Positions 3,201-44,434 of a stretch of DNA of 64,000 nucleotides are shown piece after piece (the first letter of the stretch is position 1; every line of letters begins with the position of its first letter). This stretch comes from Minisyncoccota bacterium (lineage in GTDB: Bacteria; Patescibacteriota; Minisyncoccia; Phycocordibacterales; Phycocordibacteraceae). The stretch is from NCBI GenBank assembly GCA_017991635.1, contig JAGOQE010000001.1, forward strand, positions 131,965-195,964, given 5' to 3'. The translations under genes were made by a program, and so were the position numbers. Below the pieces are notes generated by a model. The model was not told the origin of the DNA, ran no database searches, and worked only from the letters and a program-made list of their open reading frames with translations.

Positions 3201-3221
3201 TACTCGACCCGTTAGAGAACC

Positions 3222-5121: not shown

Positions 5122-5125
5122 CACT

Positions 5126-6661: not shown

Positions 6662-6664
6662 CGC

Positions 6665-8812: not shown

Positions 8813-8827
8813 TAGTACACTGTATTC

Positions 8828-9643: not shown

Positions 9644-9698
9644 CTTTTAAACGTTTTTTGTACTCGTTTATTGTTGTTCGTTGCTATACTACTAAGTA

Positions 9699-10106: not shown

Positions 10107-10109
10107 CAT

Positions 10110-10751: not shown

Positions 10752-10757
10752 TTTACT

Positions 10758-12572: not shown

Positions 12573-12595
12573 AAGAATGAGGTACTATAGTACCA

Positions 12596-13261: not shown

Positions 13262-13287
13262 GTTAACCTCTGGATTTCAATAAAAAT

Positions 13288-14298: not shown

Positions 14299-14300
14299 CT

Positions 14301-15218: not shown

Positions 15219-15221
15219 CCT

Positions 15222-19106: not shown

Positions 19107-19331
19107 GTGTGGATAAGTTGGGGAATAGTGTGGGTAAACTGCTGTATAACTTGAGAAAATTTACTTAGTTTATACACAGGTTATTAATGTGGTGATCTTT
19201 TTCTCTCTCCCATCCTCCTTATCCACATTGTTTCTTAGACTCCTGCGCACCGAGCAATTATCAAAAAACGGCGTATACTTAGGGTGTGAAAGGTTTTCCA
19301 CACAATACACAGGGGTAATAGGGCTAGGTAT
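19107..19331. other. Probable oriC: dnaA-dnaN intergenic region with clustered DnaA boxes
   Basis: Perfect TTATCCACA at 19219-19227 and its reverse complement TGTGGATAA at 19108-19116. One-mismatch boxes at 19129-19137, 19170-19178, 19294-19302. Two-mismatch box at 19188-19196. AT-rich. Confidence 0.65.
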
Positions 19332-29949: not shown

Positions 29950-30602
29950 TGTACCTTTTTACAGGAACTGATAGTGACAAGGTGCGTAAGCAAGCATTTG
30001 CACTCGTTGATGCTTCACGAAAGAAAGCGCCTATGGCGCCGTATATTCGTTTGGCTCCAGAAGAGGTGTCACCAGAGTCGCTTGAAGGAGCACTGCACAC
30101 ACAAGGATTATTTTATGACCGTTCACTCGTTGTCCTCGATGACCCATTTCAAATTACAGAATCATCAGATGTTCTACTTGAGCACTTGGACTTACTCCAG
30201 AAATCAGAAAATCCAGTATTTATTATTGCGCCAAAGTTACTTCCCGCACGAAGAAAGAAAATTGAATCAAAGGCCACCAAGGTGTTTGTATACGACGTAA
30301 AGGAAAAGGCCGAAGCGCGAGGATTTAATAGTGGGCTTGTTAATGCGCTAGGTGCAAAGGACGGAAAAGCATTGTGGTTGGAACTTATGAAGGCCTCGAG
30401 TGCCGGAGACCCTGCTGAGCTCGTGCACGGACTTCTTCATTGGAAGGCGCGAGATCTTATGGAGAAGGGGAGTCGGGTATGGAGTGCCCGAGATGCGCGC
30501 GCACTTTCAATCTCACTCATACTTCTTGTAAGTGAAGCGGGGAGAAGCGAACTGCCGCTTCAGGATGCGCTTGAGCGTTTTGCGCTCTCACTTACAAAAT
30601 AG
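29946..30602 (+). CDS. Possible DNA polymerase III delta subunit (HolA)-like protein
   Basis: Translationally coupled to polA (ATGA overlap). Weak resemblance to HolA N-terminal domain. Low confidence. Confidence 0.3.
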   Translation: MMYLFTGTDSDKVRKQAFALVDASRKKAPMAPYIRLAPEEVSPESLEGALHTQGLFYDRSLVVLDDPFQITESSDVLLEHLDLLQKSENPVFIIAPKLLPARRKKIESKATKVFVYDVKEKAEARGFNSGLVNALGAKDGKALWLELMKASSAGDPAELVHGLLHWKARDLMEKGSRVWSARDARALSISLILLVSEAGRSELPLQDALERFALSLTK

Positions 30603-33645: not shown

Positions 33646-33912
33646 ATGGCCATTACGAAGTCTGCAAAAAAGGCGCACCGAGCTTCTCTCAAGAAACACG
33701 TATTTAACGTGCGTAGGAAGCGTGCCCTTACAAAAACCACGAAAGAGGTGAATAAGCTCGTCCTTGAAAAGGATCTCAAGGGGGCAGAAACCTCACTTTC
33801 AGCTGCATACAAGGCAATTGATAAGGCGGCAAAGAAGGGTGTTATTAAGAAAAACACAGCTTCCCGCAAGAAATCACGCCTAGCAGCATCAATCGCTCGA
33901 GCAGCAAAATAG
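33646..33912 (+). CDS. rpsT: 30S ribosomal protein S20
   Basis: MAITKSAKKAHRASLKKHVFNVRRKRALTKT... Lys/Ala-rich 88 aa. ORF-track start 33601 is an upstream extension. Confidence 0.85.
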   Translation: MAITKSAKKAHRASLKKHVFNVRRKRALTKTTKEVNKLVLEKDLKGAETSLSAAYKAIDKAAKKGVIKKNTASRKKSRLAASIARAAK

Positions 33913-33915
33913 CAA

Positions 33916-33945
33916 AAACCGCCTGAGAGGGCGGTTTTTTGTTTG
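33916..33945 (+). terminator. Intrinsic terminator after rpsT
   Basis: AAAAACCGCCTGAGAGGGCGGTTTTTTGTTTG: GC stem + T-run. Confidence 0.75.
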
Positions 33946-33946
33946 A

Positions 33947-34144
33947 CGCGTTTCGGGTAGGAACCGTGATTACACGTTCGGTCACGGTTCACTAGTTCGC
34001 TTCGCTCTCAAGTGTCCGCGACCCCGCCTCACTGTCCTCGAGGACTCAGACATGTTCCGGCTTTCGATTCCTAACGAGAAGCGCGAAGGCGCTTCTCTCC
34101 GAGAGCACCATATGAAAAAACGCCCGTGTGGGCGTTTTTTCATA
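33947..34144 (-). repeat. tRNA-linked structured repeat, copy A (minus orientation, downstream of tRNA-Arg-GCG); includes 70 nt perfect palindrome 34088-34157
   Basis: Reverse complement of 34006-34061 equals core GGAATCGAAAGCCGGAACATGTCTGAGTCCTCGAGGACAGTGAGGCGGGGTCGCG shared with copies at 38493 and 43987. Preceded by CTTC-loop hairpin. The palindrome CCGAGAGCACCATATGAAAAAACGCCC/GGGCGTTTTTTCATATGGTGCTCTCGG embeds an inverted copy of the tRNA 3' end. Confidence 0.7.
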
Positions 34145-34219
34145 TGGTGCTCTCGGTAGGAATCGAACCTACATTACCAGCTCCGCAAGCTAGCGTCCTA
34201 TCCATTGAACGACGAGAGC
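34145..34219 (-). tRNA. tRNA-Arg (anticodon GCG), CCA encoded
   Basis: Hand fold: acceptor GCTCTCG/CGAGAGC, D-arm GTTCAATGGATAGGAC, anticodon loop TTGCGGA, T-arm GTAGGTTCGATTCCTAC, 3' ACCA. Confidence 0.7.
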
Positions 34220-34265
34220 AATAAAAATGACTCTACCGTTTAAGAGGCACTTTCGCAAGAGAAGA

Positions 34266-34757
34266 CTAAATCTTCATTAAGGCAACAATTCTATCAATCA
34301 CTGAATTCTCGTGTTCTCCTTCAGGTACGTGTTCAAGCACATACTCATAGAGCTCCATGGGGTCATGCTCAGTGAGAGGAATGAGGAGGTGTGGCGCAAG
34401 AAAATATCGAGTCTTGATTGAGAGGGCAGGGGGAAGGGTCGGGTCAATGTATTCAAGAATGGAGAAGTGGAGCATCTTTTCGTAGTCGTAGTATGTGTTG
34501 TCTACATAGAGTCCTTCGGGTCGAAGCACAAATCGATGCACGCGAGGATGCTTGGCCGCGTAGAGTGCTATAGAAATTGCCGCTGCAATAATTACAAAGC
34601 CAAGAAGAATATTTCCAAACAACACGCAGGCAACAACGCCAGCGATGGAAAGAATACCAAGAGCCCAGTACCAGTCGGCACCTTTTTGTTCAAAAGAATA
34701 TTCCTTCCCGTGCCACACATAATCGGCACTTTGTTCCATATGTGCACATGATAGCAC
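34266..34757 (-). CDS. Hypothetical membrane protein
   Basis: Two adjacent hydrophobic helices (WYWALGILSIAGVVACVLFGNILLGFVIIAAAISIALYAA), otherwise no recognisable motif. Confidence 0.4.
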   Translation of the reverse strand: MLSCAHMEQSADYVWHGKEYSFEQKGADWYWALGILSIAGVVACVLFGNILLGFVIIAAAISIALYAAKHPRVHRFVLRPEGLYVDNTYYDYEKMLHFSILEYIDPTLPPALSIKTRYFLAPHLLIPLTEHDPMELYEYVLEHVPEGEHENSVIDRIVALMKI

Positions 34758-34848
34758 TGTGTATAGTGAAAAAAGTATTCATGCACAAATAATAAAACCC
34801 GCGGTGCGGGTTTTAACTTAACATCGTTTCCGTTTTCCCCGGTACACT

Positions 34849-34939
34849 GCGGAGGAGGTGAGATTCGAACTCACGGTCCCGTTTCCGAGACTCCTGTTTT
34901 CAAGACAGGTGCAATCGACCACTCTGCCACTCCTCCGCA
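34849..34939 (-). tRNA. tRNA-Ser (anticodon TGA), long variable arm
   Basis: Hand fold: acceptor GCGGAGG/CCTCCGC, anticodon stem-loop CCTGTCTTGAAAACAGG, long variable arm, T-arm GTGAGTTCGAATCTCAC. Confidence 0.7.
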
Positions 34940-35081
34940 CTATACCCGGGATTAGTTCAACATCGTCGCGGTGCTCCGTGTTTCACTTAACAATACAAGC
35001 GCAACCACAACTCTGCCACTCCTCCGTATCATAGAGTGATACACGAAAAACGGAATTTACACAATCTGGTACCATGGGGGT

Positions 35082-35492
35082 ATGCGGTATCTCGCCATAG
35101 ATTTTGGAACGAAAAAGCTCGGACTCGCCCTTTCTGACGAGGCAGGTGTTATGGGTTTCCCTCATAGTATTATCCCCAACACTGGTCATCTGGTGGAAGA
35201 GCTCTCAGCACTTATTGCGAAGGAAGGGGTAGAAGAAGTGGTAATTGGCGAATCAAAAATGCTCTCAGGAGCAGAGAATCCAATAGCACAAAAGGCTAGG
35301 GATTTAGCAAAGGAACTTACACAGTTTTCCGGAGTCCCTGTTTCTTTTGAGCCAGAGATGTTTACGACACAGGAGGCTCGCCGTGATATGGAAGGTCTCC
35401 GAACTATTAAGGGTGATGTGGATGCAAGCGCAGCCGCCCTCATCCTCACCAGTTTTCTTGATAAGAAAAATTCAGCAAAACACCATGATTGA
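35082..35492 (+). CDS. ruvX: Putative pre-16S rRNA nuclease / Holliday junction resolvase-like YqgF (RuvX)
   Basis: MRYLAIDFGTKKLGLALSD... RNase H-fold YqgF signature, 136 aa. Confidence 0.8.
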   Translation: MRYLAIDFGTKKLGLALSDEAGVMGFPHSIIPNTGHLVEELSALIAKEGVEEVVIGESKMLSGAENPIAQKARDLAKELTQFSGVPVSFEPEMFTTQEARRDMEGLRTIKGDVDASAAALILTSFLDKKNSAKHHD

Positions 35493-35811
35493 TATAGAAG
35501 ATTTCGCAAAAGTAGAAGTGAGTATCGGTACGGTAGTTCTTGCCGAACGAGTTCCAGAGACGGATAAACTTCTTCGGTTACTTATTGATGTTGGGGAAGA
35601 AGAGCCGCGACAGATTGTCTCGGGTATTGCCGCGTATGTAGAGAACCCAGAACAGCTAGTCGGGAAACAGCTTGCCTTCGTGACTAATTTAAAACCACGA
35701 CGCCTTAAAGGACTTGAGAGTAACGGCATGCTTTTTGCAGTTGGAGAAGGAGATACATTTGCTTTTGTGACTCCAGATAGGCCTGTGCCACCCGGAACAA
35801 AAGCGCACTAG
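35485..35811 (+). CDS. tRNA-binding domain protein (CsaA/Trbp111/MetG C-terminal-like OB fold)
   Basis: MIDIEDFAKVEVSIGTVVLAERVPETDKLLRLLIDVGEE-PRQIVSGIAAYV...KQLAFVTNLKPRRLKGLESNGMLFA is a typical tRNA_bind domain. True start is the internal ATG at 35485 of the 35347 ORF. Confidence 0.7.
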   Translation: MIDIEDFAKVEVSIGTVVLAERVPETDKLLRLLIDVGEEEPRQIVSGIAAYVENPEQLVGKQLAFVTNLKPRRLKGLESNGMLFAVGEGDTFAFVTPDRPVPPGTKAH

Positions 35812-35855
35812 GAAAACATTCCGTAATGGAATTGTGAGCACGGTATACTACGTGT

Positions 35856-36941
35856 ATGCGCAAAGGTTCCTTTTCTCAATTTTTACGAGCAGAGCTTCCG
35901 CCTCCTCGATACCTTGCTCTTCCGACTGCTGGTATCGATATCTCCTCAAGCGGTATTAAAATCGCCATGCTTACCGAAAGTGTGCAAGGATTGAAGCTTA
36001 CTGAATTTACTGAAGAGCGTCTCCCACAGGGAATTGTTAACGGTGGTGAAATAGCTGACAAGGAGATGGTCGTTGAGCGTTTGCAGGCACTTAAGAAGAA
36101 GCATCGATTTGAGTGTGCAAACATCGCTCTCTCAGAATCGAGAGGCTACCTCTTTGACGCTACGGTGTCTGGAACATCCATGGATCAGCTTCGTGTGAGC
36201 ACGGAACAGCACATTGATGAGTACATACCTTTGCCCCCGCAAGAAGTTATGTTTGACGTAGCTCCGCTCTCTACTCTTGGTGAAGCCACACATGTGGTTG
36301 GTGTGGGGTACGCGCGTAGAGTAGTGGAAGAGACCATTGAGCTTATCGATGCTGCAGGAATCACCGTACGTGCTCTTGAAGGGGAAACGTTTGCTCTTGC
36401 GCGCGCCCTCCTTCCTCATGGAGACACAAGTACTGTTCTCATCATTGATATAGGACGTACCACCACAAAGCTAATGGTGGTGAGTCATCGTATGCCTCGC
36501 TTCACCACGACGCTTGATATTGGTGGCCACGCACTCACCCTTGCTGTGCAAAAACACTTTGGTGTTACCGAAGAGGAAGCAAAAAAAGTAAAAGCAGAGA
36601 AGGGTCTTGTTGGGGGAGAGGGCAATGAAGAATACATTGCTGCACTTATCTCAACTATCTCAGCAGTGCGCGAGGAAATTGCACACCGACTAGAGTACTG
36701 GCAGTCACACGCTAAGGACGAGGGACATGAGCCCGTCTCTCAGGCAATTCTTGTGGGCGGTAATGCAACCATACGTGGTCTTCCTGAATATCTTGAAGCA
36801 ACACTAAAGATCCCTGTTGGTCTTGGAGATGTCTTTACTAATCTCGCCTCAAGAGACGAGTGGCTTCCACCGCTTGATTACATGGAGTCACTTGCCTACG
36901 GTACCGCCATTGGGCTAGCACTTCGTGAATACGTACCATGA
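35856..36941 (+). CDS. pilM: Type IV pilus assembly protein PilM (actin-like ATPase fold)
   Basis: N-terminus ...GIDISSSGIKIAMLT. Actin/HSP70-like subdomain pattern. Followed by pilN/pilO-like genes with overlapping stop/starts. Confidence 0.75.
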   Translation: MRKGSFSQFLRAELPPPRYLALPTAGIDISSSGIKIAMLTESVQGLKLTEFTEERLPQGIVNGGEIADKEMVVERLQALKKKHRFECANIALSESRGYLFDATVSGTSMDQLRVSTEQHIDEYIPLPPQEVMFDVAPLSTLGEATHVVGVGYARRVVEETIELIDAAGITVRALEGETFALARALLPHGDTSTVLIIDIGRTTTKLMVVSHRMPRFTTTLDIGGHALTLAVQKHFGVTEEEAKKVKAEKGLVGGEGNEEYIAALISTISAVREEIAHRLEYWQSHAKDEGHEPVSQAILVGGNATIRGLPEYLEATLKIPVGLGDVFTNLASRDEWLPPLDYMESLAYGTAIGLALREYVP

Positions 36942-37501
36942 AGCACGAACTTACCAATCTACTTCCACGAGAACGAACGCGCGCCTTTAGACAGGTGTAC
37001 TTCATGCGTCTCCTCACTCTTGCTGCCGTTCTTGCCACGGTATTGGTCGTCGTTCACGGATTACTGCTCATGCCTACCTATCTCCTTCTTTCGGCAGAGG
37101 CATCCGAGGCCAAGAAGACACTTGATACGCTCACGCAATCACAAGCTCAAAACGGACCCAAGGATGAGGCAGGACAAAAACTTGAAGCGCTTAATTCAGA
37201 CGCGCTACGACTACAAGAAGTGGGTGGCTACATAAGTGCGACTGAGACTATTTCTTCAGTCCTAGAGACTTTGCGTACCGGGATCGCTATTACTCGATTC
37301 ACCTATGCTCCTCCAAGTGCGAGTGGGGAAGGGAGACTTTCGCTAACTGGAAGAGCAGAGTCCCGGACAGCGCTTGATTCATTTGTTAAAGAATTAAGAA
37401 AAAATACACGGTTTAGTGTTATTGATTTGCCGATAAGTGCATATGCAAAGGAGACAAATCTCGAGTTCACCATTTCTATCTCAGGAGACTTTACGCCATG
37501 A
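36938..37501 (+). CDS. pilN: Type IV pilus assembly protein PilN-like
   Basis: NLLPRERTRAFRQVYFMRLLTLAAVLATVLVVVHG: conserved PilN N-terminus + single TM. ATGA overlap with pilM. Confidence 0.7.
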   Translation: MKHELTNLLPRERTRAFRQVYFMRLLTLAAVLATVLVVVHGLLLMPTYLLLSAEASEAKKTLDTLTQSQAQNGPKDEAGQKLEALNSDALRLQEVGGYISATETISSVLETLRTGIAITRFTYAPPSASGEGRLSLTGRAESRTALDSFVKELRKNTRFSVIDLPISAYAKETNLEFTISISGDFTP

Positions 37502-38025
37502 ACAAGAACAGCATTCCATTACTTACGGCACTCGTCATACTCATACTCACACTCGTGTTGTATGTGGCGTGGCTCTATAGCGTAAGTCAGGTAAGTGCAT
37601 CAATACGAATGACGCAAGAAGAGATCGCAACAGCGCGTCAGGAATCTCTGCAGAATACAAAAACAAAGGAAGCGCTTCTTGCCCTCAGTTCAAATGCAGA
37701 GGTCATTAGAGGTTTCTTTGTGGAGAAAGAAAGCCTTGTTTCATTTCTCGAGACATTAAGCAAAACAGGAACAGCGCTAGGTTCCACCCTTGAAATCATG
37801 TCAGTGTCTGACTCTAAAGACGCGCAAGGCAATCCACGAATTCTGGTCGCTCTCAAAATTCAAGGTTCCTTTGACACTGTTGTGCGAACCGTGGGGGCGC
37901 TTGAGCAAGGACCTTACGATAGTAAGGTGGAAAACCTTCACCTAGAAGCAAGACAGCTTGATACTGTTGGTGCGCCTTGGACAGCTTCAGTTACATTGTC
38001 AGTAGGAGCACATGCTACCGAATAA
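37498..38025 (+). CDS. pilO: Type IV pilus assembly protein PilO-like
   Basis: Single N-terminal TM, coiled-coil, then periplasmic domain. Operon position after pilN. Confidence 0.55.
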   Translation: MNKNSIPLLTALVILILTLVLYVAWLYSVSQVSASIRMTQEEIATARQESLQNTKTKEALLALSSNAEVIRGFFVEKESLVSFLETLSKTGTALGSTLEIMSVSDSKDAQGNPRILVALKIQGSFDTVVRTVGALEQGPYDSKVENLHLEARQLDTVGAPWTASVTLSVGAHATE

Positions 38026-38335
38026 TCGTATGAAACTTCCAACACTCAATATTGCAGGAATACAAAGTCACTTCTCGTACGGTAAACGAGTGATGCCCGT
38101 GCGCGACTGGTTTGTGTTGATTGGTCTTGTCTGTGTCCTGCTTGTCGTGAGCGCACTGTGGAATGGATTCATTTTTTACAAAACAGCACAAGGAGAGCCG
38201 CTCACGCTTTCAACCACTCCTGTTGAAAAGGTGGATGTGCACGAAACTGCACCAGTGACCTCTATTATTGAGAAGAGAGAGCAGAAGCGACGCATATACG
38301 AAGCTGGACCTCTCTTCGTTGACCCGGGCATATAA
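38012..38335 (+). CDS. Small single-TM protein, possible PilP-like pilus assembly component
   Basis: TM VLIGLVCVLLVVSALW. Operon position after pilMNO. No motif verification possible. Confidence 0.35.
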   Translation: MLPNNRMKLPTLNIAGIQSHFSYGKRVMPVRDWFVLIGLVCVLLVVSALWNGFIFYKTAQGEPLTLSTTPVEKVDVHETAPVTSIIEKREQKRRIYEAGPLFVDPGI

Positions 38336-38361
38336 GACGCGCTAGTGTAAGGGAATCCAAA

Positions 38362-38433
38362 GCCCCCATAGCTTAATGGATAAAGCAGGAGACTTCTAAG
38401 CTCTTGATCTTGGTTCGATTCCAGGTGGGGGCA
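38362..38433 (+). tRNA. tRNA-Arg (anticodon TCT)
   Basis: Hand fold: acceptor GCCCCCA/TGGGGGC, D-arm GCTTAATGGATAAAGC, anticodon loop CTTCTAA, T-arm CTTGGTTCGATTCCAGG. Confidence 0.7.
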
Positions 38434-38690
38434 CAGCGTGAACGAAGTGAATAGCGTGCTCCCACAGAACTGTGCCTTCGCACAGTTCGTCTGGAATCGA
38501 AAGCCGGAACATGTCTGAGTCCTCGAGGACAGTGAGGCGGGGTCGCGTACCTTGGTCTTCTGCGAATACTTGGAGCAGAATACCTAGCGATACGTGACCG
38601 ATGCGAGAGCGCGACCACAATTTCTTGAGCGCAGCGATTAGAAATTTGAAGTACCCTTGTGGTGAAGCGAACTTCCAGGTGGGGGCACAA
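38434..38690 (+). repeat. tRNA-linked structured repeat, copy B (downstream of tRNA-Arg-TCT), flanked by 17 nt direct repeat of the tRNA 3' end
   Basis: CTTC-loop hairpin 38464-38492, then core GGAATCGAAAGCCGGAACATGTCTGAGTCCTCGAGGACAGTGAGGCGGGGTCGCGTACCTTGGTCTTCTGCGAATACTTGGAGCAGAATACCTAGCGATACGTGACCGATGCG (38493-38605). TTCCAGGTGGGGGCACA occurs at 38419-38435 (in tRNA) and 38673-38689. Confidence 0.75.
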
Positions 38691-38725
38691 ATACAAAAAG
38701 AGCGCCTTGGCGCTCTTTTTGTGTA
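38691..38725. terminator. Bidirectional intrinsic terminator between repeat copy B and tRNA-Val
   Basis: AAAAAGAGCGCCTTGGCGCTCTTTTT perfect palindrome with A/T runs on both sides. Confidence 0.7.
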
Positions 38726-38801
38726 TGTGGTGGGCGATAGAGGACTCGAACCTCTGACCATCCCGGTGTAAACGGGGTGCTCTACCAACTGAGCTAATCG
38801 C
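38726..38801 (-). tRNA. tRNA-Val (anticodon TAC), CCA encoded
   Basis: Hand fold: acceptor GGGCGAT/ATCGCCC, D-arm GCTCAGTTGGTAGAGC, anticodon loop TTTACAC, T-arm AGAGGTTCGAGTCCTCT, 3' ACCA. Confidence 0.7.
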
Positions 38802-38857
38802 CCTACAGGTGATACCTTAGCGCATTTCATATTTTTTTCCAAGCAACCTGAAGGGCT

Positions 38858-39154
38858 GTGATAGTGTTTACAGATTATATGGAACGGCTTGAGGCAATTG
38901 TGTATGGAAGGGTACAGATGGTGATGTATAGAGATTTTGCTACCAGAAAGGCAAAAGGTCTTTCTTTGGTTGGAGAAGTAAGGAATCTACCTGACGGTAC
39001 GGTACATGTCATTGCTGAAGGGTCACGAGAGGTTCTCAACGAATATGTGGGGAAGTTGAAGAAGGGCTCACTACTCTCAGAAGTAGAGCGAGTTGAACCT
39101 GTGTTTACACCGGCTACCCATACCTACTCCTCATTTTCAATCACGTATGCCTAA
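38858..39154 (+). CDS. Acylphosphatase
   Basis: VYGRVQMVMYRDFATRKAKGLSLVGEVRNLPDGTVHVIAEG: acylphosphatase signatures (V.G.VQGV.FR; G.V.N..DG.V). Probable start at internal ATG 38879. Confidence 0.7.
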   Translation: MIVFTDYMERLEAIVYGRVQMVMYRDFATRKAKGLSLVGEVRNLPDGTVHVIAEGSREVLNEYVGKLKKGSLLSEVERVEPVFTPATHTYSSFSITYA

Positions 39155-39818
39155 AGCAATAGGCATCATTATGGATGGGAATAGGCGGTGGGCACGAAGT
39201 CGCAACCTGCCACTTCTTGAAGGGCACAGACAGGGTGCTGAGAAACTTAAAGACGTTGCGCGTTGGTCGCGTGACGCAGGGGTACAAGAGCTCACCGTCT
39301 ATGCATTCTCTACAGAGAACTGGAAGAGAAGTGAGGAAGAGGTTTCGTACCTTATGAAGCTTCTCGGACAGATGCTGTCTAAGGATTTACAAGAACTGCA
39401 CAAAGAACACATACAGCTTCGTTTTGTTGGTGAGAGAGACCGGTTTCAACCGACGCTCATTGAGAAGATGAATGAACTTGAACGAGTAGTTCCTCTTGAA
39501 ACAAAACTCACACTCGTCATCGCACTTTCATATGGAGGAAGAGCAGAACTTACCTCAGCGGTAAACACGCTCATAGAGCGTGGGGTGGAGAATGTTTCGG
39601 AAGAAGATATTAATCGTGCGCTGTGGACCAATGGCCTCATGGATCCTGACATGGTTATTCGTACTGGAGGAGAGAAGCGACTATCAAACTTCTTGCCGTG
39701 GCAGAGCGTGTACAGCGAACTATTCTTTAGTGAAACCATGTGGCCTGAATTTTCGTTTGAAGAATTTCTTTCTTGTATAGAGGCGTTTCGTTCACGCGAA
39801 CGAAGACGGGGTGCATAG
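39147..39818 (+). CDS. uppS: Undecaprenyl diphosphate synthase (cis-prenyltransferase)
   Basis: MPKAIGIIMDGNRRWARSRNLPLLEGHRQGAEKL..., ...YAFSTENWKR..., ...RTGGEKRLSNFLPWQSVYSELFF. ORF-track start 39093 is an extension. Confidence 0.9.
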   Translation: MPKAIGIIMDGNRRWARSRNLPLLEGHRQGAEKLKDVARWSRDAGVQELTVYAFSTENWKRSEEEVSYLMKLLGQMLSKDLQELHKEHIQLRFVGERDRFQPTLIEKMNELERVVPLETKLTLVIALSYGGRAELTSAVNTLIERGVENVSEEDINRALWTNGLMDPDMVIRTGGEKRLSNFLPWQSVYSELFFSETMWPEFSFEEFLSCIEAFRSRERRRGA

Positions 39819-39844
39819 CTCTTATGGGGATTTTAGGCTAAGGT

Positions 39845-40594
39845 GTGCTTATGAAACTCTCCATACTCTACGAAGACAATGATATTGTCGCCGTGTTCAA
39901 GCCTGCCGGCATACTCACGCACCCTGATGGTGTCTTAGAAGAAGAGACCGTCAGTGACTGGTTTGCTAAGACGTATCCAAATTCTAAGAACGTCGGAGAG
40001 GAGCAGGTACTCAAAGACGGGACCAGTATTCTTCGCTCTGGCATTATGCATCGCTTGGATAGAGATACGAGTGGCGTTCTTGTCCTTGCCAAAACACCCG
40101 AAGCTCACGCCTTTCTTAAAAAGGCATTTCAAGAGCATGAGGTGCAGAAGACGTACATTGCTCTTACATATGGTGTTCCACCAAAGAAGGAAGGTGTTAT
40201 AGATTTTCCTATTGGAAGAAGTCGAAAAGATTTCAGACTTCGTTCGGCACAGCCAAAGGCAAAAGGACTTTTGCGTCCTGCCATCACGAAATACAAAGTA
40301 CTTGGCGTATTTGGAGAATATGGGCTTATTGAACTTCAACCAAAGACTGGAAGAACACATCAAATCCGAGTACACCTTAAGGCAGTCCACCATCCTATCG
40401 TGTGTGACCCCTACTATGCACCAAGTTATAAGCCAGGGCTCGGCATGGAGCGTCTCGCTCTTCATGCCTTCCAAATTACTATTCCACTCCCTCAAGGTGG
40501 GACGACAACCATAATCTCTCCACTTCCTGAAGATATGAGGACAGCGGTTGCTCATTTTCCCGAAGGAGCGTATCTTCTCGAAGGAACAACATAA
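39845..40594 (+). CDS. RluA-family 23S rRNA/tRNA pseudouridine synthase
   Basis: Catalytic motif HRLDRDTSGVLVLAKT, 249 aa, no N-terminal S4 domain. Confidence 0.8.
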   Translation: MLMKLSILYEDNDIVAVFKPAGILTHPDGVLEEETVSDWFAKTYPNSKNVGEEQVLKDGTSILRSGIMHRLDRDTSGVLVLAKTPEAHAFLKKAFQEHEVQKTYIALTYGVPPKKEGVIDFPIGRSRKDFRLRSAQPKAKGLLRPAITKYKVLGVFGEYGLIELQPKTGRTHQIRVHLKAVHHPIVCDPYYAPSYKPGLGMERLALHAFQITIPLPQGGTTTIISPLPEDMRTAVAHFPEGAYLLEGTT

Positions 40595-40608
40595 AACAGG
40601 AGGTCGCC

Positions 40609-41187
40609 GTGAAGGGTAATCTAATACTCGCCCGCGTCTCGCATACATGGAATTTCGGGGAAGATTCGTATCCTGCCCTTGAAACGCTTCAAGATGAGCA
40701 GGCGTTAGTCTTCTCGCTCACCCATATACTCAAACATCAATCAAAAGGTGCTTCGTGGTGTACTGCGGTGCGCAAGGGGCGCATTCTGCCGCAACTCACC
40801 GAAATTCGTGAACGACTGTTGAAGATGATGGTGAACGCTCTTCGTTTCCACACTCTCATTCAAGGGGGTGAGGAGAAGGTGAACGCCGTCTTTGACTGGT
40901 GGGGCTGTGCTCTTCCGTCTGTGTGTGATGCAGAAACGCTGAGTAAAATTAGGTTTGGTGCGGGCTTCAAGGCCGCACTCTCTAGTTTTGTGGAGACAAC
41001 GCTCTACGCCAACGGACTATTGGAAAAGCCTGATCATGGAGCTCCGCTCCCGTACTCGGCACTACGTGAAGCATCAGAAGAGCTCCTTACAGAAACTGCA
41101 CACATGCTCCATATGTTCGGTGTTACCCGAAAAGCCTTTGAAGACTGGCTTTCAAGTCCGGGAACGCTTGTCCGACTCGCTCACTAA
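40609..41187 (+). CDS. Hypothetical protein (GTG start)
   Basis: 192 aa, no recognisable motif. Slightly higher GC than neighbours. Confidence 0.35.
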   Translation: MKGNLILARVSHTWNFGEDSYPALETLQDEQALVFSLTHILKHQSKGASWCTAVRKGRILPQLTEIRERLLKMMVNALRFHTLIQGGEEKVNAVFDWWGCALPSVCDAETLSKIRFGAGFKAALSSFVETTLYANGLLEKPDHGAPLPYSALREASEELLTETAHMLHMFGVTRKAFEDWLSSPGTLVRLAH

Positions 41188-41278
41188 GTGAGGCGGGGAC
41201 TCAAATAGCGGTATCGCGCCTCAGGCACGGTACCGCTATTTTGCTTTTACCAAGCTGTCATGGTAGAGTTTCGCCACT

Positions 41279-41797
41279 ATGCAGAACGTTATTACTCCGG
41301 TTAAAACCGAAGAGCGCACCAAGCTTGGGATTCGCCCAGGTGATACGGTTCGCGTACACCAGAAGATTGTAGAAAAGGGAAAGACCCGAATCCAGATGTT
41401 TGAAGGATTGGTTATCGCTACCAAGCACGGAAGCGAGCCGGGTGCTTCATTTACTGTACGTGCAACACTCTCAGGCGTGGGTGTAGAGAAGATTTTCCCC
41501 CTTTTCGCTCCTTTTATCGATAAGATTGAAATCGTACGTCGCTCTAAGGTTCGTCGTGCCAAGCTCTACTTCATCCGTGAGAAGGTTGCTCGTGAGGTAC
41601 GTCGCCAGCTTCGCAATATGCGCATGGTAAACCTTTCAACAGAAGACTTTAAGGAAGAGGAAGCTCCTGAAGTTGTTGCTGAGGAAACTACAGAGGGAGT
41701 AACGGAAACAGCACCAGAAGTAGCAGAAGCTTCTGAGAGCACCGAAGAGGAGACAACAGAAGCTGAATCAGAAGAGGACAAGAAGGAGACGGCCTAA
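41279..41797 (+). CDS. rplS: 50S ribosomal protein L19 with ~55 aa acidic C-terminal extension
   Basis: [39 protein letters not shown]... L19 core to about residue 117, then [47 protein letters not shown]. Confidence 0.85.
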
Positions 41798-41849
41798 GCC
41801 GTCTTTTTCATTTGTCTAAATGGAAGAGAGTCGGTATAGTAGCCATCAC

Positions 41850-41931
41850 AGGCCCAGGTGGTGAAATTGGTATACACGCATCCTTGAGGTGGATGTCCTT
41901 TCGGGGGTGGAGGTTCAAGTCCTCTCCTGGG
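41850..41931 (+). tRNA. tRNA-Leu (anticodon GAG), long variable arm
   Basis: Hand fold: acceptor GCCCAGG/CCTGGGC, anticodon stem-loop CATCCTTGAGGTGGATG, variable arm CCTTTCGGGGGTGG, T-arm GAGGTTCAAGTCCTC. Confidence 0.7.
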
Positions 41932-42167
41932 CACAAAGACGAAGGAGTCCTATGCGTAAGCATGGGACTCCTGTCGTTTTGTAGCTCAGGAGAGGACTTG
42001 GATGACGGAGGTCGCGAAGCCGCGCGAAGCGCGTGACCGAGTCGGGGTCGCGTCACTTATGAGTCTGTCAGCAGACGAATTAGTGAAACGTGACCAAAAG
42101 TGTAATCACGTGTCCTCTCCTGGGCACATATGAAAGAACGCCTTCGGGCGTTTTTTCATATGTGCCC
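41932..42167 (+). repeat. tRNA-linked repeat, degenerate copy D (downstream of tRNA-Leu) ending in direct repeat of tRNA 3' end and a 55 nt perfect palindrome/terminator
   Basis: Hairpin 41936-41975. Segment 42030-42106 similar to the 3' part of copy A (TCGGGGTCGCG..CACTT...TAGTGAA.CGTGACC...GTGTAATCACG). GTCCTCTCCTGGGCACA repeated at 41917-41933 and 42107-42123. Palindrome TCCTGGGCACATATGAAAGAACGCC-TTCG-GGCGTTTTTTCATATGTGCCCAGGA 42113-42167. Confidence 0.6.
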
Positions 42168-42268
42168 AGGAATCAATGTGTCGGTACACATTGCGTGAGG
42201 GTTTGAATGACGGAAGTTACAAGGCAGCGCAGTAAGTTGGCAGTGACAGAAATTTGTTATGCTAAATA

Positions 42269-42760
42269 ATGCGTATGAAGTACAACAAGGGTTTTACACT
42301 AGTGGAACTACTTATCGTAATTGCGATTATCGGTATCTTGTCGAGTGTTGTACTGTCGAGCCTAAATACAGCGAGGCTAAAAGCTAGAGACGCAAGGAGA
42401 GTCGCTGACTTTAAGAGTGTCAGTTTGGCCATGGAGCTTTATAAGGATTCATTTGGAGCTTATCCTGGAAGTAATGCGTTGTATCCAGATTCAAAAGCTC
42501 AATTTGACCAAATGGCCCAGCAACTTGTTACGGCTGGTTTTCTGAGTAGTGTACCGAAGGATCCAGTCGATAATTCAACATACAAGTATCAATTTTATTA
42601 CTATGGCCCCGGTGGGGCTCCCGGTGCCATCATTGTTTCCTATCTTGAGTCGGTAAGCGCAACAACAGTTGGACCTCTAAACTCTTGTAGACCCTTTACC
42701 ACTAACTGGTGTAGCTACACACAGCCAAGTAGTGCCTATTGTTTATGTCATCCGTATTGA
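42269..42760 (+). CDS. Type IV pilin (prepilin-type N-terminal cleavage/methylation domain)
   Basis: KGFTLVELLIVIAIIGILSSVVLSSL: class III signal peptide with G|FTLVE and conserved Glu+5. C-terminal Cys pair (CSYTQPSSAYCLC). Confidence 0.85.
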   Translation: MRMKYNKGFTLVELLIVIAIIGILSSVVLSSLNTARLKARDARRVADFKSVSLAMELYKDSFGAYPGSNALYPDSKAQFDQMAQQLVTAGFLSSVPKDPVDNSTYKYQFYYYGPGGAPGAIIVSYLESVSATTVGPLNSCRPFTTNWCSYTQPSSAYCLCHPY

Positions 42761-42841
42761 GTAAGTGCAGTGTGTAGTTTCGGGCATTATACAGAGCACT
42801 CGTGTTGATGTGATTCTATGCCTTATTGATATACTCGTCTC

Positions 42842-43252
42842 ATGGAGCTCGTAATTGACTACTCAAACATACTAATTGCCACCGTAGGTATGGCTCTTGT
42901 TGGACTCTTGTGGCGATTCGGTCTTTTTGGAAAGGAGTGGATGAAAGAAACAGGATATTCTTTGAGCGTGCTTAAGGAGCATAAGGTTGAGGTAGTACGT
43001 ACACTTTTATTTCATGTACTCCTCATCTTCATTATGGCCCTCGTTATTGCACTTCTTATTGGGCTTACGCATCCTCAAGGACTGTCAGGGGTCTTCGTGC
43101 TCGTGCTCATGATTGTGGGTGGGTTTGTTATCCTTCCACAGCTCGAGCGAGTGTTGTTTGAGAAGCGTTCATGGAAGAACTGCATAATCTCTCTTGGTGA
43201 ATACGCTCTCATGATTATTACAGGCGCATATGTCATAACGTACTTAGGATAG
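42842..43252 (+). CDS. Hypothetical small polytopic membrane protein
   Basis: Four hydrophobic helices in 136 aa. Confidence 0.4.
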   Translation: MELVIDYSNILIATVGMALVGLLWRFGLFGKEWMKETGYSLSVLKEHKVEVVRTLLFHVLLIFIMALVIALLIGLTHPQGLSGVFVLVLMIVGGFVILPQLERVLFEKRSWKNCIISLGEYALMIITGAYVITYLG

Positions 43253-43254
43253 CT

Positions 43255-43824
43255 ATGTTGTATACCGGAAAGGGGGATGGAGGAACCACAAAAACATTTG
43301 GACCAAATCAAGAACGAATTTCAAAGGCGTCAGAGCTTCCTGAGGCGCTTGGAACTCTGGACGAATTGAATTCATTTATAGGACTTTCAAAAGTGTGGGC
43401 GAGGAGTGTGCAGGATACTGGAGTACTTGTTGGTAAGAAACGCTACGCAACGTCGGCTATTTTGAGAGACATTCAAGAAAATTTGTTCATTGTGCAGGCT
43501 GAAGTTGCTGGGGCTCCAAAAAAGATAGGGAAGCGCAAGGTTACTCAGGCAGAGACAATTATTAATACTATTGAGTCAGAGCTTCCTCCTATTACTTCTT
43601 TCTCAATTGCAGGCGGAACGGAATTGTCAGCCGTACTTGATGTTGCGCGTACGCTTTCTCGTAGGGCGGAAAGAAGAGTAGTTGGCGTGCATGAACAAGG
43701 GCTGCGAAAAATATCTCCATTCACGCTTGCCTATCTCAACCGACTCTCCTCGCTTTTGTTTGCCCTTGCTCGTCTTACGAATAAGCAATCAGGGGTCCTA
43801 GAAGAGGCACCAACCTACCGCTAG
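43255..43824 (+). CDS. ATP:cob(I)alamin adenosyltransferase, PduO/MMAB type
   Basis: MLYTGKGDGGTTKTFGPNQERISKASELPEALGTLDELNSFIGL: diagnostic PduO-type N-terminus (KGDxGxT motif), 189 aa. Confidence 0.8.
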   Translation: MLYTGKGDGGTTKTFGPNQERISKASELPEALGTLDELNSFIGLSKVWARSVQDTGVLVGKKRYATSAILRDIQENLFIVQAEVAGAPKKIGKRKVTQAETIINTIESELPPITSFSIAGGTELSAVLDVARTLSRRAERRVVGVHEQGLRKISPFTLAYLNRLSSLLFALARLTNKQSGVLEEAPTYR

Positions 43825-43847
43825 AGCCGTTCGCGTGGTATAAGAAC

Positions 43848-43920
43848 TAAACCACATGGCGGCTATGGTGTAACGGTTAACACTACAGGTTGTGGCTCTG
43901 TCGATCCGGGTTCGATTCCC
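43848..43920 (+). tRNA. tRNA-His (anticodon GTG) with G-1
   Basis: Hand fold: G-1 paired to discriminator C, acceptor GCGGCTA/TAGTCGC, anticodon stem-loop ACAGGTTGTGGCTCTGT, T-arm ATCCGGGTTCGATTCCCGG. Confidence 0.7.
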
Positions 43921-44127
43921 GGTAGTCGCCCAAAAAGCACAAGACTAACGTGTATACGTTAGTCTTGTTGCGTTTGCAGGCTACCAGGAATCGAAAGCCG
44001 GAACATGTCTGAGTCTTCGAAGATAGTGAGGCGGGGTCGCGTATCTTAGTATTCTGCGAATACTTGAAGCAGAATACTTAGCAATACGTGACCGATGCGC
44101 GAAGCTTCCCGGTAGTCGCCCCAAAAG
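43921..44127 (+). repeat. tRNA-linked structured repeat, copy C (downstream of tRNA-His), flanked by ~21 nt direct repeat of tRNA 3' end
   Basis: Hairpin/terminator 43928-43962, then core 43987-44099 (GGAATCGAAAGCCGGAACATGTCTGAGTCTTCGAAGATAGTGAGGCGGGGTCGCGTATCTTAGTATTCTGCGAATACTTGAAGCAGAATACTTAGCAATACGTGACCGATGCG), about 90% identical to copy B. TTCCCGGTAGTCGCC at 43908-43922 and 44106-44120. Confidence 0.75.
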
Positions 44128-44182
44128 TAGCTTGTTTATGAATGCTACAATAAAAACTTAGAACAGCTCCTAGGAGGTCCTT

Positions 44183-44434
44183 ATGGACAGCTTCGCCTCG
44201 CTTGGTCTTACGATACGCGCTGCAAAGGGCAGTACGCCCGAAGAGAAACGAATTGAAGTTCGCTTCACCGAAGGCGACTCATTCATCGCTTGGTTTCAGA
44301 AGACCTCGCGCAAGAGTAACGGTGAAGATATCACCAGTATCTCTACACAGTTCGTGCGTCGTAGAGAACTCACAAAAGCTCAAATTGGTGCGATTGAGGC
44401 ATGGCTTCTCGAGCGTACTCGTGAACACATATAA
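44183..44434 (+). CDS. Hypothetical small protein
   Basis: 83 aa ORF with ordinary composition, immediately after repeat copy C and before mscL in a different frame from the spurious 44202 ORF. No motif recognised. Confidence 0.3.
   Translation: MDSFASLGLTIRAAKGSTPEEKRIEVRFTEGDSFIAWFQKTSRKSNGEDITSISTQFVRRRELTKAQIGAIEAWLLERTREHI

Follow-up and report, generated by a model that had tools for sequence, protein, structure and literature searches.

Why should one short repeat without an ORF stand directly behind four different tRNA genes in a 10-kb stretch? The window analysed here, a whole stretch of 64,000 nt from a Minisyncoccota bacterium, raises this question, and a sequence-only reading of it had proposed a miniature element mobilised in trans by a tyrosine integrase, or alternatively a tRNA-linked small RNA family. 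That related cores follow four tRNAs is confirmed: a covariance model built from relatives elsewhere matches the window exactly four times, always directly 3' of a same-strand tRNA gene (called with ARAGORN and Rfam). The four copies are made up of the following parts.

Copy A
34145-34219, minus: tRNA-Arg(GCG), target
from 34155-34162 (TTCCTACC), minus: proximal repeat (copy 1), the tRNA-Arg(GCG) 3' part from T-loop to end
34111..34144, minus: cap, palindrome TATGAAAAAACGCCC-ACAC-GGGCGTTTTTTCATA, like a bidirectional terminator
34063..34110, minus: whole guide region
34099-34110, minus: P1a, TGGTGCTCTCGG, antisense to the acceptor 3' strand and CCA
34074-34098, minus: H0 hairpin
34063-34073, minus: P1b, TAGGAATCGAA, antisense to the T-stem 3' strand, T-loop and 3 nt left of the junction
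33972-34075, minus: covariance model match, 74 bits
33980..34062, minus: three-way-junction core, P2/H1 then P3/H2, ending ...CCGTGACC
33964-33979, minus: linker mini-hairpin, GAACGTGTAATCACGG
33956-33963, minus: distal repeat, TTCCTACC, degenerate after 8 nt
Copy B
38362-38434 (feature 38362..38435), plus: tRNA-Arg(TCT), target
38416|38417, plus: T-loop junction TTC|GA
38457..38501, plus: whole guide region
38457-38465, plus: P1a, TGCTCCCAC
38466-38490, plus: H0 hairpin
38491-38501, plus: P1b, CTGGAATCGAA
38489-38607, plus: covariance model match, 51 bits
38502..38599, plus: three-way-junction core
38600-38672, plus: linker, 73 nt
38673-38689, plus: distal repeat, 17 nt
Copy D
41852-41934 (feature 41852..41935), plus: tRNA-Leu(GAG), target
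41916|41917, plus: junction TTC|AA
41943-41972, plus: cap hairpin, terminator-like
41987-42002, plus: guide, CAGGAGAGGACTTGGA
41990-42103, plus: covariance model match, 51 bits
42003..42095, plus: three-way-junction core, divergent subtype
42096-42111, plus: linker mini-hairpin, AAAAGTGTAATCACGT
42112-42128, plus: distal repeat, 17 nt
Copy C
43859-43931, plus: tRNA-His(GTG), target
43913|43914, plus: junction TTC|GA
43939-43968, plus: cap hairpin
43975-43995, plus: guide, TGCAGGCTACCAGGAATCGAA
43983-44101, plus: covariance model match, 50 bits
43996..44093, plus: three-way-junction core
44094-44105, plus: linker, GATGCGCGAAGC
44106-44121, plus: distal repeat, 16 nt

Several details of the first description change with this anatomy. 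Copies B (38493-38605) and C (43987-44099), described as about 90% identical over their full length, agree at 104 of 113 positions (92%), and the 29-mer GGAATCGAAAGCCGGAACATGTCTGAGTC occurs exactly three times versus none expected by chance. Copy A, taken for the first 55 nt of the core only, contains the entire core with a shorter second hairpin, and its architecture is reproduced by the minimum-free-energy fold; its end, said to be merely a degenerate T-arm-like match, is an exact 8-nt repeat (34155-34162 = 33956-33963). The distal repeats claimed for B, C and D are indeed exact (38419-38435 = 38673-38689, proximal copy TTCCAGGTGGGGGCACA; 43916-43931 = 44106-44121; 41919-41935 = 42112-42128), with that of D lying 5 nt away from the 42107-42123 originally given. 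The GC hairpin said to precede each full core, whose loop is CTTC(G), is present in A and B; other hairpins take its place in C and D. The cap module of copy A is found again at 42129-42160, and the distal repeat of copy B is followed by a terminator common to the convergent tRNA-Val. Finally, GGAATCGAA, which had been counted as the start of the core, is antisense to the T-loop and T-stem of the adjacent tRNA, and its counterpart in copy D, GGAGAGGACTTGGA, is complementary to tRNA-Leu including one G.T pair.

An antisense segment of this kind, termed the guide, recurs in the family. It pairs with 3 nt to the left of the junction and, on the right, with 5-8 nt or more (about 25 at most), the junction falls between C and a purine (C|R), and guide and target covary. 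P1b covariation is 0.602 vs 0.229. Over its 6 variable nt, the guide has 4.41 matching positions with the cognate T-stem 3' strand and 2.75 with non-cognate tRNAs (p = 1e-7). A left flank of TTC accompanies guide GAA in 33 cases and TCC accompanies GGA in 4, while at positions +1/+2 GA goes with TC (32 cases) and AA with TT (5). Insertions in tRNA genes fall into a T-loop and an acceptor-end class, and the same pairing rule is obeyed by the latter as well as by topA and rpsI. Within the distal copy, the part that pairs with the guide is conserved and the remainder decays. The guide would be what selects the target; however, its match to the target may in part be a consequence of copying, for instance of quasi-palindrome correction across the cap hairpin, and not what causes targeting.

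The core itself folds into a three-way junction (P2/H1 and P3/H2). Aligning the copies for covariation, as had been suggested, gave a strong signal: pairing is 93.7% vs 76.1% in shuffles, and the covariation score is 0.424 vs 0.126, a value reached by 0/500 shuffles and far from the slid controls (at most 0.093). The P2 N:N' pair, for instance, is CG in 25 cases, GC in 19, AU in 6 and UA in 3, and is broken in none. Read on the gene-sense strand, the helices contain 84 G.T against 39 A.C oppositions (p = 6e-5), compared with 164 and 154 in the flanking DNA control, and the fold is therefore assigned to the sense strand of the gene.

What the elements do to their targets is to replace the 3' end. 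In rplL, the in-frame proximal copy ends KVELM* and the displaced distal copy encodes KVELK*. In topA, KTIPERCSN..C..H.P.K is kept in both copies despite 66-82% DNA identity, the copies differ at synonymous sites, and the distal copies are intact with C|R joining in frame. For tRNA-His, CCA is encoded in the distal copy and in empty sites and is absent from the window's proximal copy. In an empty site the native terminator comes after the tRNA; in a filled one it comes after the distal repeat.

Empty and filled states, whose comparison had also been proposed, both occur among close relatives. One syntenic relative (L131, 94% amino acid identity) has an empty Leu site and a filled His site, two (L132, L133) have both sites empty, and in L134/L135 both are filled; the terminator after the copy D distal repeat is found in L131 immediately behind the tRNA of the empty site. 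At a further locus (L125), the flanks agree with the window to 100% and the same tRNA carries a different element; the differences are confined between the tRNA end and ...ACGTGACC. The right-hand part of copy C (linker and distal repeat) is likewise unchanged between strains whose elements at the site differ. The view of a miniature ORF-less element located at tRNA 3' ends, with the tRNA 3' part duplicated, thus holds, and it is gained, lost and exchanged among relatives.

The family is a large one of folded, protein-less elements, 150-260 nt long, in bacteria with tiny genomes; about 170 members were found, and they belong to Patescibacteria (CPR) and Elusimicrobia. All loci were retrieved by one sequence pattern and are a biased sample; the invariance of GGTCGCG/CGTGACC was rejected as an artefact of this pattern. 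In genomes, 53 pattern matches follow a tRNA on the same strand at a distance of 65-260 nt; in about 25 of them, 12-23 nt of the tRNA 3' part are repeated next to the core or at most 16 nt from it. The covariance model gives 87 matches in 100 loci, and metagenomes add 82 family-like matches (52/82 behind tRNA or tmRNA). Adjacency to tRNAs, true of the four window copies, does not extend to the whole family: targets include tRNAs for all 20 amino acids, tmRNA, and the inside of the 3' ends of topA (eight loci), rplL and rpsI, and about 8-10 loci have no recognisable upstream target gene. The first reading had recognised no known repeat class, and the family indeed matches no known repeat or RNA class; Rfam, phages, plasmids and the searched literature gave no match, and it was apparently undescribed before.

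On balance, we lean towards a new kind of nucleic-acid-guided integrative element, ORF-less and 150-260 nt long, that replaces the 3' end of a conserved gene. Its unit begins with the replacement gene 3' end and continues with a cap or terminator hairpin, which may be missing, the antisense guide (P1a, H0, P1b) and the core (P2/H1, P3/H2). The cap often resembles an intrinsic terminator, so that part of the core may escape transcription. In the free form, the guide would pair with the element's own target copy, forming a helix P1 stacked on P3. Upon insertion, it would re-pair with the homologous stretch in the resident gene plus 3 nt leftward, and one phosphodiester would be exchanged, always after C and before a purine, at a position equivalent to the P3 end in the element and to TTC|GA in the T-loop. 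The gene would become joined to the element-borne 3' end, and the resident 3' end would be pushed to the far side, where it would appear as the distal "direct repeat". As catalyst we tentatively prefer a trans-acting enzyme, probably encoded by the host, whose substrate would be the folded sense strand or duplex DNA.

Parts of this scheme recall known systems. Tyrosine-recombinase integrative elements and CIMEs, derivatives of them that lack the integrase, also insert at the T-loop or 3' end of tRNA/tmRNA or at the 3' end of a conserved protein gene, keep the gene intact with a replacement 3' end, leave the displaced end as a direct repeat and form tandem arrays; the present elements measure only 150-260 nt, use one core for dozens of targets, have no integrase nearby, contain an antisense guide and show a fold that covaries and is strand-specific. 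IS200/IS605 elements and their miniature derivatives, the PATEs, share folded single strands, end-adjacent hairpins, ORF-less non-autonomous copies and a short internal guide that pairs with a few nucleotides left of the insertion point. However, IS200/IS605 elements use a fixed target motif of 4-5 nt and make no duplication, whereas the present elements pair rightward over 5-8 nt or more (about 25 at most), carry a copy of the target 3' end, and lack nearby TnpA/TnpB and Rfam matches to IS605-associated RNAs. The bridge (seek) RNAs of IS110/IS1111 are structured non-coding RNAs of about 150-200 nt within the element that set the target by pairing, but they have two internal loops (target and donor) and an adjoining DEDD recombinase gene, whereas the present elements have one guide helix and a three-way junction, carry no gene for a recombinase and duplicate a long segment of the target. 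Group I introns occur in Patescibacteria tRNAs (bioRxiv 10.1101/2025.07.03.662931); like the present elements they have no ORF, are found in this phylum's tRNA genes and use a single guide (internal guide sequence, P1/P10) to align nucleotides on both sides of the junction. Unlike them, our elements lack the group I core, the terminal G and an Rfam Intron_gpI match, and sit at the T-loop or 3' end rather than in the anticodon loop, leaving the gene uninterrupted because a replacement end is supplied. In integron attC and CTX-phage attP (XerCD), a one-strand hairpin with covarying stems mimics a duplex recombination site and the recombinase is encoded elsewhere, but R/L boxes (GTTRRRY) and a dif-like target are absent here and target identity lies within the hairpin. 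HDV-like "theta" ribozymes by phage tRNAs are also structured RNAs directly 3' of tRNA genes; the present elements differ in lacking the nested double pseudoknot, an Rfam match and phage context, and in duplicating the tRNA 3' end.

An RNA-level element, in which the three-way junction is a small ribozyme (a recombinase ribozyme or intron-like RNA), is unlikely. Here, reversible cleavage and ligation would occur at C|R at the gene/element and element/distal-copy junctions, with the guide akin to an internal guide sequence; the RNA would splice or circularise, reverse-insert into tRNA or mRNA, and become a permanent part of the DNA through reverse transcription and recombination. In its favour are the fold on the transcribed sense strand (G.T over A.C), a G.U wobble kept at the fifth pair from the junction while adjacent pairs covary, conserved purine-rich junction and internal-loop nucleotides with tandem G.A motifs (one variant, GA/GA, directly after the junction), and a guide spanning 3 nt of "5' exon" and at least 5-8 nt of "3' exon", which places the junctions about 3 bp apart in the fold. 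Repeats that often end at the transcript 3' end or a terminator, the intact, in-frame topA copies and the lack of a linked protein gene also agree with it. On the other hand, known ribozyme families give no match even at E < 10, the junction is fully Watson-Crick paired in most members, which is unusual for in-line cleavage, the cap that often separates gene and core resembles an intrinsic terminator, no reverse transcriptase is found nearby, and splicing is unneeded given the proximal copy. The small RNA family proposed earlier survives as far as RNA-level activity is possible, but it is not tRNA-specific since protein genes are also targeted.

It is improbable that these are CIME-like miniature elements served by tyrosine recombinases in trans, with guide complementarity and hairpins incidental. 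The repeats do start at the T-loop or acceptor end of a tRNA/tmRNA and reach its 3' end, or lie at 3' ends of conserved protein genes, sublocations that are reportedly the classic attachment places of tyrosine integrases, and 3'-end replacement and tandem accretion fit as well. Yet the single core, about 90% identical, serves four tRNAs in the window and at least 40 anticodons family-wide, viral contigs (pattern scan) and phages and plasmids (BLAST with member sequences) yielded no match, and strong covariation with strand-specific wobble is unexpected for double-stranded att arms. The integrase that had been predicted was sought without success: no protein family is common to more than 8 of the flanks of 82 loci, where the top clusters are housekeeping, and no recombinase, reverse transcriptase or transposase lies near the elements. 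Among 38 of the window's 61 large ORFs, picked mainly for size and position around the elements and searched against Pfam, 29 match housekeeping or secretion families, nine match none, and no integrase, transposase or reverse transcriptase is among them. That a tyrosine integrase specific for tRNAs mobilises the elements is therefore not supported: one core serves tRNAs for all 20 amino acids, tmRNA and three protein genes, no integrase was found in these flanks and ORFs, and classical att sites have neither a target-complementary guide nor a covarying fold.

We also consider it improbable that a resident RNA module acting in cis (in processing of the 3' end, in stability or insulation, or as a switch that sequesters the gene's 3' end) has spread mainly by gene-copy recombination and is no true mobile element. 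Cores are frequently exchanged between copies, and the conservation of the guide-pairing part of the distal copy while the rest decays would also fit, but presence/absence among close relatives, a replacement element in one strain, insertions within the coding sequence of three unrelated protein genes with replacement C-termini, tandem and nested copies, and near-identical cores in two distant phyla speak against it. A SINE-like retroelement inserted by target-primed reverse transcription is very improbable: 15-23 nt repeats are typical of staggered nicks, ORFs are lacking and the orientation is that of highly transcribed genes, but there is neither an A-rich tail nor a linked reverse transcriptase, and the repeats range from 3 to >60 nt and the topA copies differ synonymously, so an imported copy fits and an in-place duplication, as a target-site duplication would be, does not.

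Guided integration, as we favour it, may nevertheless not be the whole biology of the family, and the following features also count for the cis-acting reading. Between core and distal repeat, a linker mini-hairpin is conserved in many members, including all four window copies, and with its TAAT/TACT loop it covaries across genomes. Copy D of the window and L074 are orthologous copies whose structure has been kept over the long term across distant genomes. Together, these observations suggest that the element has a function in place, beyond mobility alone.

Seven tRNA genes are encoded in the window, four of them inside 10.2 kb, and each of these four is followed 3' and on the same strand by one copy of the element:

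34145-34219, minus strand, tRNA-Arg-GCG, target of copy A
38362-38434, plus strand, tRNA-Arg-TCT, target of copy B
41852-41934, plus strand, tRNA-Leu-GAG, target of copy D
43859-43931, plus strand, tRNA-His-GTG, target of copy C

A covariance model trained only on relatives from other genomes plus copy A gave exactly four matches in the 64 kb (50-74 bits), which bears out the sequence-only reading of structured repeats directly 3' of four tRNAs. The 29-mer that opens the core drawn in that reading occurs exactly three times where none is expected, and copies B and C, put at about 90% identity, are 92% identical across 113 nt. All four copies match the model and carry the modules that define the new family, namely a three-way-junction core, a preceding guide antisense to the target gene's 3' part and a following sense copy of that part; copy A, earlier read as only the first 55 nt of the core, is complete. 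Exact distal repeats of the tRNA 3' part measure 17 nt in B, 16 in C, 17 in D and 8 in A. Thus, the duplication proposed for B, C and D stands, with its position in D corrected to 42112-42128, and the CTTC-loop hairpin said to precede each core is restricted to A and B.

Read along the tRNA strand, the gene's 3' part (mid T-loop to 3' end, copy 1) is followed by a spacer, which is often a cap hairpin resembling an intrinsic terminator, and by a guide region in which a small hairpin, H0, separates two antisense stretches: P1a is complementary to the acceptor 3' strand together with the trailer, and P1b to the T-loop, the 3' strand of the T-stem and the 3 nt left of the junction (for example, CTGGAATCGAA vs. 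target TTCGATTCCAG). After P1b come one purine, P2 with hairpin H1, GG, the long hairpin P3/H2 ending in ...CGTGACC, a linker (present in the window copies) and the distal copy 2. The start of the core does resemble a T-arm, as suggested from the sequence, but it reads as a guide-like antisense segment that is re-written in copy D to pair with tRNA-Leu. Mini-hairpins of the linkers and orthologous copies are strongly conserved in place, and promoter-like sites adjoining the cores were not found. GCGAAGC-type mini-hairpin motifs are repeated in many loops across the family. The 73-nt linker of copy B (38600-38672) contains GAGCGCAGCGATTAG, and this motif recurs as GAGCGCAGCGAATAAG in the P1-capping loop of the tRNA-His element (3178-3202) of L131, a locus from a relative.

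The core is a covarying three-way junction on the gene-sense strand, as RNA or single-stranded DNA. Across 53 aligned cores, compensatory changes occur in 20 of the 29 predicted pairs, and 93.7% of cells are paired vs. 76.1% in shuffles. The covariation check proposed earlier gave a strong signal (score 0.424 vs. 0.126 shuffled, as high in 0 of 500 shuffles; slid controls at most 0.093). One P2 pair is intact in every core and occurs in each of the four Watson-Crick combinations. The base of P3 covaries too in copies retrieved independently of the search pattern, where the fifth pair counted from the junction remains G.U in most cases; the seeming invariance of GGTCGCG/CGTGACC is an artefact of that pattern. 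Within helices, G.T mismatches outnumber A.C mismatches on the gene-sense strand (84 vs. 39, p = 6e-5), compared to 164 vs. 154 in flanking DNA. This excess indicates that the functional fold is made by the sense strand, and it rules against an antisense-strand RNA consisting of a T-loop and acceptor end followed by a terminator.

The guide is matched to the gene at which each element resides. Among 41 T-loop-class copies, 4.41 of the six variable positions in the guide agree with the T-stem 3' strand of the cognate tRNA, vs. 2.75 of 6 with those of other tRNAs (p = 1e-7). To the left of the junction, 3 nt pair with the final trinucleotide of the guide (TTC-GAA 33 times, TCC-GGA 4 times), and positions +1/+2 face the next two guide nucleotides as GA-TC (32 times) or AA-TT (5 times); in a sub-class, a tandem GA/GA takes the place of the two pairs past the junction. 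Covariation extends to the pairing between guide and distal copy (0.602 vs. 0.229). The left-flank nucleotides lie outside the repeat, and ACC, the 3' end of the element itself, is unable to pair with them; the complementarity of the guide therefore refers to the intact target. The same rule is obeyed by a second tRNA class with insertion at the acceptor end (CGC|ACCA, guide ...GGTGCG, repeat of just 3-6 nt), by topA (CAC|CAAAACCAT, guide ATGGTTTTGGTG) and by rpsI (GGC|GAAGCGT). The 3 nt to the left vary (TTC, TCC, CGC, GAC, CAC, GGC), with only the C at -1 constant, and the next nucleotide is a purine. Each unit combines its fold and guide rule with a C|R junction at the boundary of P3 and P1.

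At its target, the element supplies a replacement 3' end to the gene. For example, the rplL reading frame enters the proximal copy and ends in KVELM*, while the displaced distal copy encodes KVELK*, which we take to be the usual L7/L12 ending. Both copies at topA keep the zinc-ribbon KTIPERCSN..C..H.P.K at just 66-82% DNA identity, and the C|R joining is in frame in 4 of 4 loci checked. CCA is encoded in empty tRNA-His sites and in distal copies, and the proximal copy has one C fewer (in the window and in L131). Similarly, the terminator lies directly 3' of tRNA-Leu in the empty site of L131 and beyond the distal repeat in the window.

Comparison of relatives that share the gene order L19 - tRNA-Leu - DUF1761 - adenosyltransferase - tRNA-His - MscL shows that elements are gained, lost and exchanged. 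The comparison covers the tRNA-Leu and tRNA-His sites (copies D and C), and both the empty and the filled states, whose contrast between strains had been proposed as a check, were found at each. The window and L134/L135 (78% protein identity) have an element at both sites, L131 (94%) at the His site only, and L132 and L133 (78%) at neither. A further locus, L125, has flanks identical to the window yet a different element at tRNA-His: its cap, guide and H1 differ, it shares an identical H2 with window copy D, and the differences are bounded exactly by the tRNA end and ...ACGTGACC. Tandem units occur in L047, L050, L079, L144 (three, identical) and L231 (two topA units with three intact gene-end copies). 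In L052 (1500-1770), two tandem minimal units lie at the rplL end, the second with a member nested in its own P3 hairpin. Contigs of the window's organism often end at element sites, and loci L121-L127, short-read contigs of the same organism that include the gene preceding tRNA-His, break off inside the element or 20-60 nt past that gene; the repeats thus appear to break assemblies of this organism.

Several other sequences lie near these tRNAs. A terminator-like palindrome, TATGAAA(A/G)AACGCC...GGCGTTTTTTCATA, is present at two of them (34111-34144 and 42129-42160), between tRNA and guide at site A and beyond the distal repeat at site D, and also directly 3' of the tRNA in the empty tRNA-Leu site of L131. 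Past the terminator behind copy D, positions 42160-42260 hold TGTGCCCAGG, which is antisense to the end of tRNA-Leu, together with a hairpin similar to H0 and GAGGGTTTGAATGACGGAAG. The stretch resembles the beginning of an older tandem element that has since decayed; despite these guide-like and H0-like pieces, the covariance model scored it at 3.4 bits, no support for family membership, and we did not retain it. Directly 3' of tRNA-Lys (30515-30600, minus strand), a 10-nt inverted repeat, TTGTAAGTGA ... TCACTTACAA, surrounds ~50 nt, and no member of the guide-bearing family was found in that region.

To estimate the size of the family, we scanned one genome per species with a pattern derived from the four window copies and recovered at least 119 loci. 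High-GC matches are due to chance and were unrecognised by the covariance model; true members number at least ~80 loci in Elusimicrobia and Patescibacteria (Kaiser-, Pacei-, Sacchari-, Nomura-, Yonath-, Taylor-, Lloyd- and Zambryskiibacteria). The window itself derives from a CPR bacterium of Paceibacteria type. The model gave 87 matches in 100 loci, frequently two or three per 8 kb. Metagenomes added at least 82 family-like copies, at least 52 of them behind tRNA or tmRNA. All of these loci derive from a single pattern and form a biased sample, and the counts are lower bounds. At least 53 pattern matches in genomes lie 65-260 nt behind a same-strand tRNA, with repeats of 12-23 nt in ~25 of the 53. 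The tRNA-adjacency foreseen for copies elsewhere therefore holds for many members, but tmRNA (at least 4 loci, confirmed by Rfam and an adjoining smpB gene), topA (at least 8 loci), rplL and rpsI are also targeted. Taking genomes and metagenomes together, the targets include tRNAs of all 20 amino acids and at least 40 anticodons.

About 8-10 loci (L105, L169, L201, L204, L233/L250, L254, L149/L253 and L142) are without a recognisable upstream gene, and their guide and distal copy specify a tRNA- or tmRNA-like 3' end. No tRNA, tmRNA or Rfam family was detectable upstream of them; their upstream sequences have in common the motif AAAWAGGTTCKARC and diverge immediately past GGTTC. These orphan loci would speak for splicing if they represent interrupted genes that have no spare end.

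A match to a known RNA family, which would have counted against a new element, was not found. Rfam release 15 detected only tRNAs in the window at gathering score, and permissive searches of 33800-44400 (E up to 5) and of L066, a canonical member (E up to 10), returned nothing credible over the core. A phage or plasmid origin was set aside after the same pattern found no matches in viral contigs and blastn of a member sequence found none in phage and plasmid collections. A full-text literature search returned no description of such elements.

Clustering of ORFs from 82 loci revealed no protein family common to more than 8, and the top clusters and commonest neighbours are housekeeping genes. 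We also searched Pfam with 38 of the 61 large window ORFs, picked mainly by size and position around the elements: 29 match housekeeping or secretion families, 9 match nothing, and none is an integrase, reverse transcriptase or transposase. A linked enzyme was thus rejected, as neither the ORF clusters of the 82 loci nor Pfam searches of the top clusters and the 38 window ORFs yielded an integrase, reverse transcriptase or transposase. Among other window genes, dnaA and dnaN (17757-20432) suggest that the window is probably at the replication origin; in a cluster upstream of them (4087-16433), a TraG/VirB4-like ATPase and a T4SS-pilin-like ORF are accompanied by several large ORFs that match nothing in Pfam. 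A 1153-aa class I tRNA synthetase (57995-61456; tRNA-synt_1 and Anticodon_1), presumably isoleucyl-tRNA synthetase, has a His_Phos_1 histidine-phosphatase domain inserted at residues 502-655.

Integrative elements mobilised by tyrosine integrases (including CIMEs) resemble the new elements in target choice, gene repair and direct repeats of the gene's 3' part, the footprint recognised in the sequence-only reading. However, such an integrase has one attachment specificity, whereas here a single type of core serves three protein genes, tmRNA and tRNAs with at least 40 anticodons, and no integrase was found in the flanks of the 82 loci or among the scanned window ORFs. The targeting logic is reminiscent of IS200/IS605, IS110 bridge RNAs and intron guide sequences. 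Miniature IS200/IS605 elements depend on TnpA/TnpB and insert on the 3' side of a constant 4-5 nt motif, duplicating nothing; by contrast, the left flank here is variable, the target 3' end is duplicated and no partner protein is seen in 82 loci. IS110 bridge RNAs have two guide-bearing internal loops beside a DEDD recombinase gene, unlike the three-way junction with one guide helix and no adjacent ORF found here. Group I introns have been described in patescibacterial tRNAs at anticodon loop position 35/36 (bioRxiv 10.1101/2025.07.03.662931). Introns of that group have a P3-P9 core with a G-binding site, a terminal G and an interrupted gene, whereas the new elements have no Intron_gpI match, end in ...ACC and lie behind a complete tRNA. 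Integron attC sites carry R''/R' boxes (RYYYAAC / GTTRRRY) with crossover at G|TT; here the junction is C|R and the GTT box is absent from the alignment. MITEs end in inverted repeats specific to the element and create target-site duplications of one fixed length, but the inverted repeats here are copies of the local target that differ at every site, and the direct repeats range from 3 to >60 nt.

Among small ribozymes, the hammerhead is similar in topology by eye (junction at the P3 end into P1), but its CUGANGA and GAAA strands are absent. Rfam gave no matches to hammerhead, hairpin, HDV-like, twister, twister-sister, pistol or hatchet ribozymes in the window or L066, and by-eye comparison with HDV-like and hammerhead folds showed misfits in helix order or core strands. 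An aminoacylatable tRNA mimic is unlikely, given that guide pairing extends to the discriminator base, CCA and trailer and that the targets include protein genes. A primer-binding site was dismissed as the guide matches genomic trailer nucleotides and not the mature CCA end, and a diversity-generating retroelement as there are no differences between the tRNA repeats and those in topA are synonymous and not adenine-specific. Since defining features of each known family are lacking, we rate these as a new kind of element.

Based on this architecture, we infer that in the free form the guide would pair with the element's own copy of the target. Upon meeting a resident gene, it would pair instead with the homologous stretch plus the 3 nt left of the junction, and a single strand exchange at C|R could then join the element-borne end to the gene and displace the resident end. 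Loss may also occur by plain deletion between repeats. As catalyst we favour a widespread, trans-acting enzyme that would act on the folded sense strand or on duplex, a candidate to which we give a little less than an even chance. Ranked next, and rather unlikely, is a self-catalytic RNA. In its most far-reaching form, to which we give slightly less credence still, the junction would be a new natural ribozyme class in which the guide directs a reversible exchange of strands at C|R, either RNA recombination or splicing, and the elements would be protein-independent mobile introns. They would then supply, and could swap, the 3' ends of tRNAs, tmRNA and mRNAs.

If the guide-directed exchange is correct, these would be mobile elements with a nucleic-acid target address that encode no protein and repair the gene they enter, a new principle of DNA or RNA mobility. 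Such elements would account for the breaks at tRNA genes in assemblies of these organisms and for the stray tRNA 3' fragments in their annotations, and their scaffold of ~100 nt, programmable by nature, could direct site-specific insertion to sequences of choice. The elements are abundant in the smallest known bacterial genomes, with four copies in a 10-kb stretch of the window, and their catalyst would be of wide interest whether it proves to be a host enzyme or the RNA.
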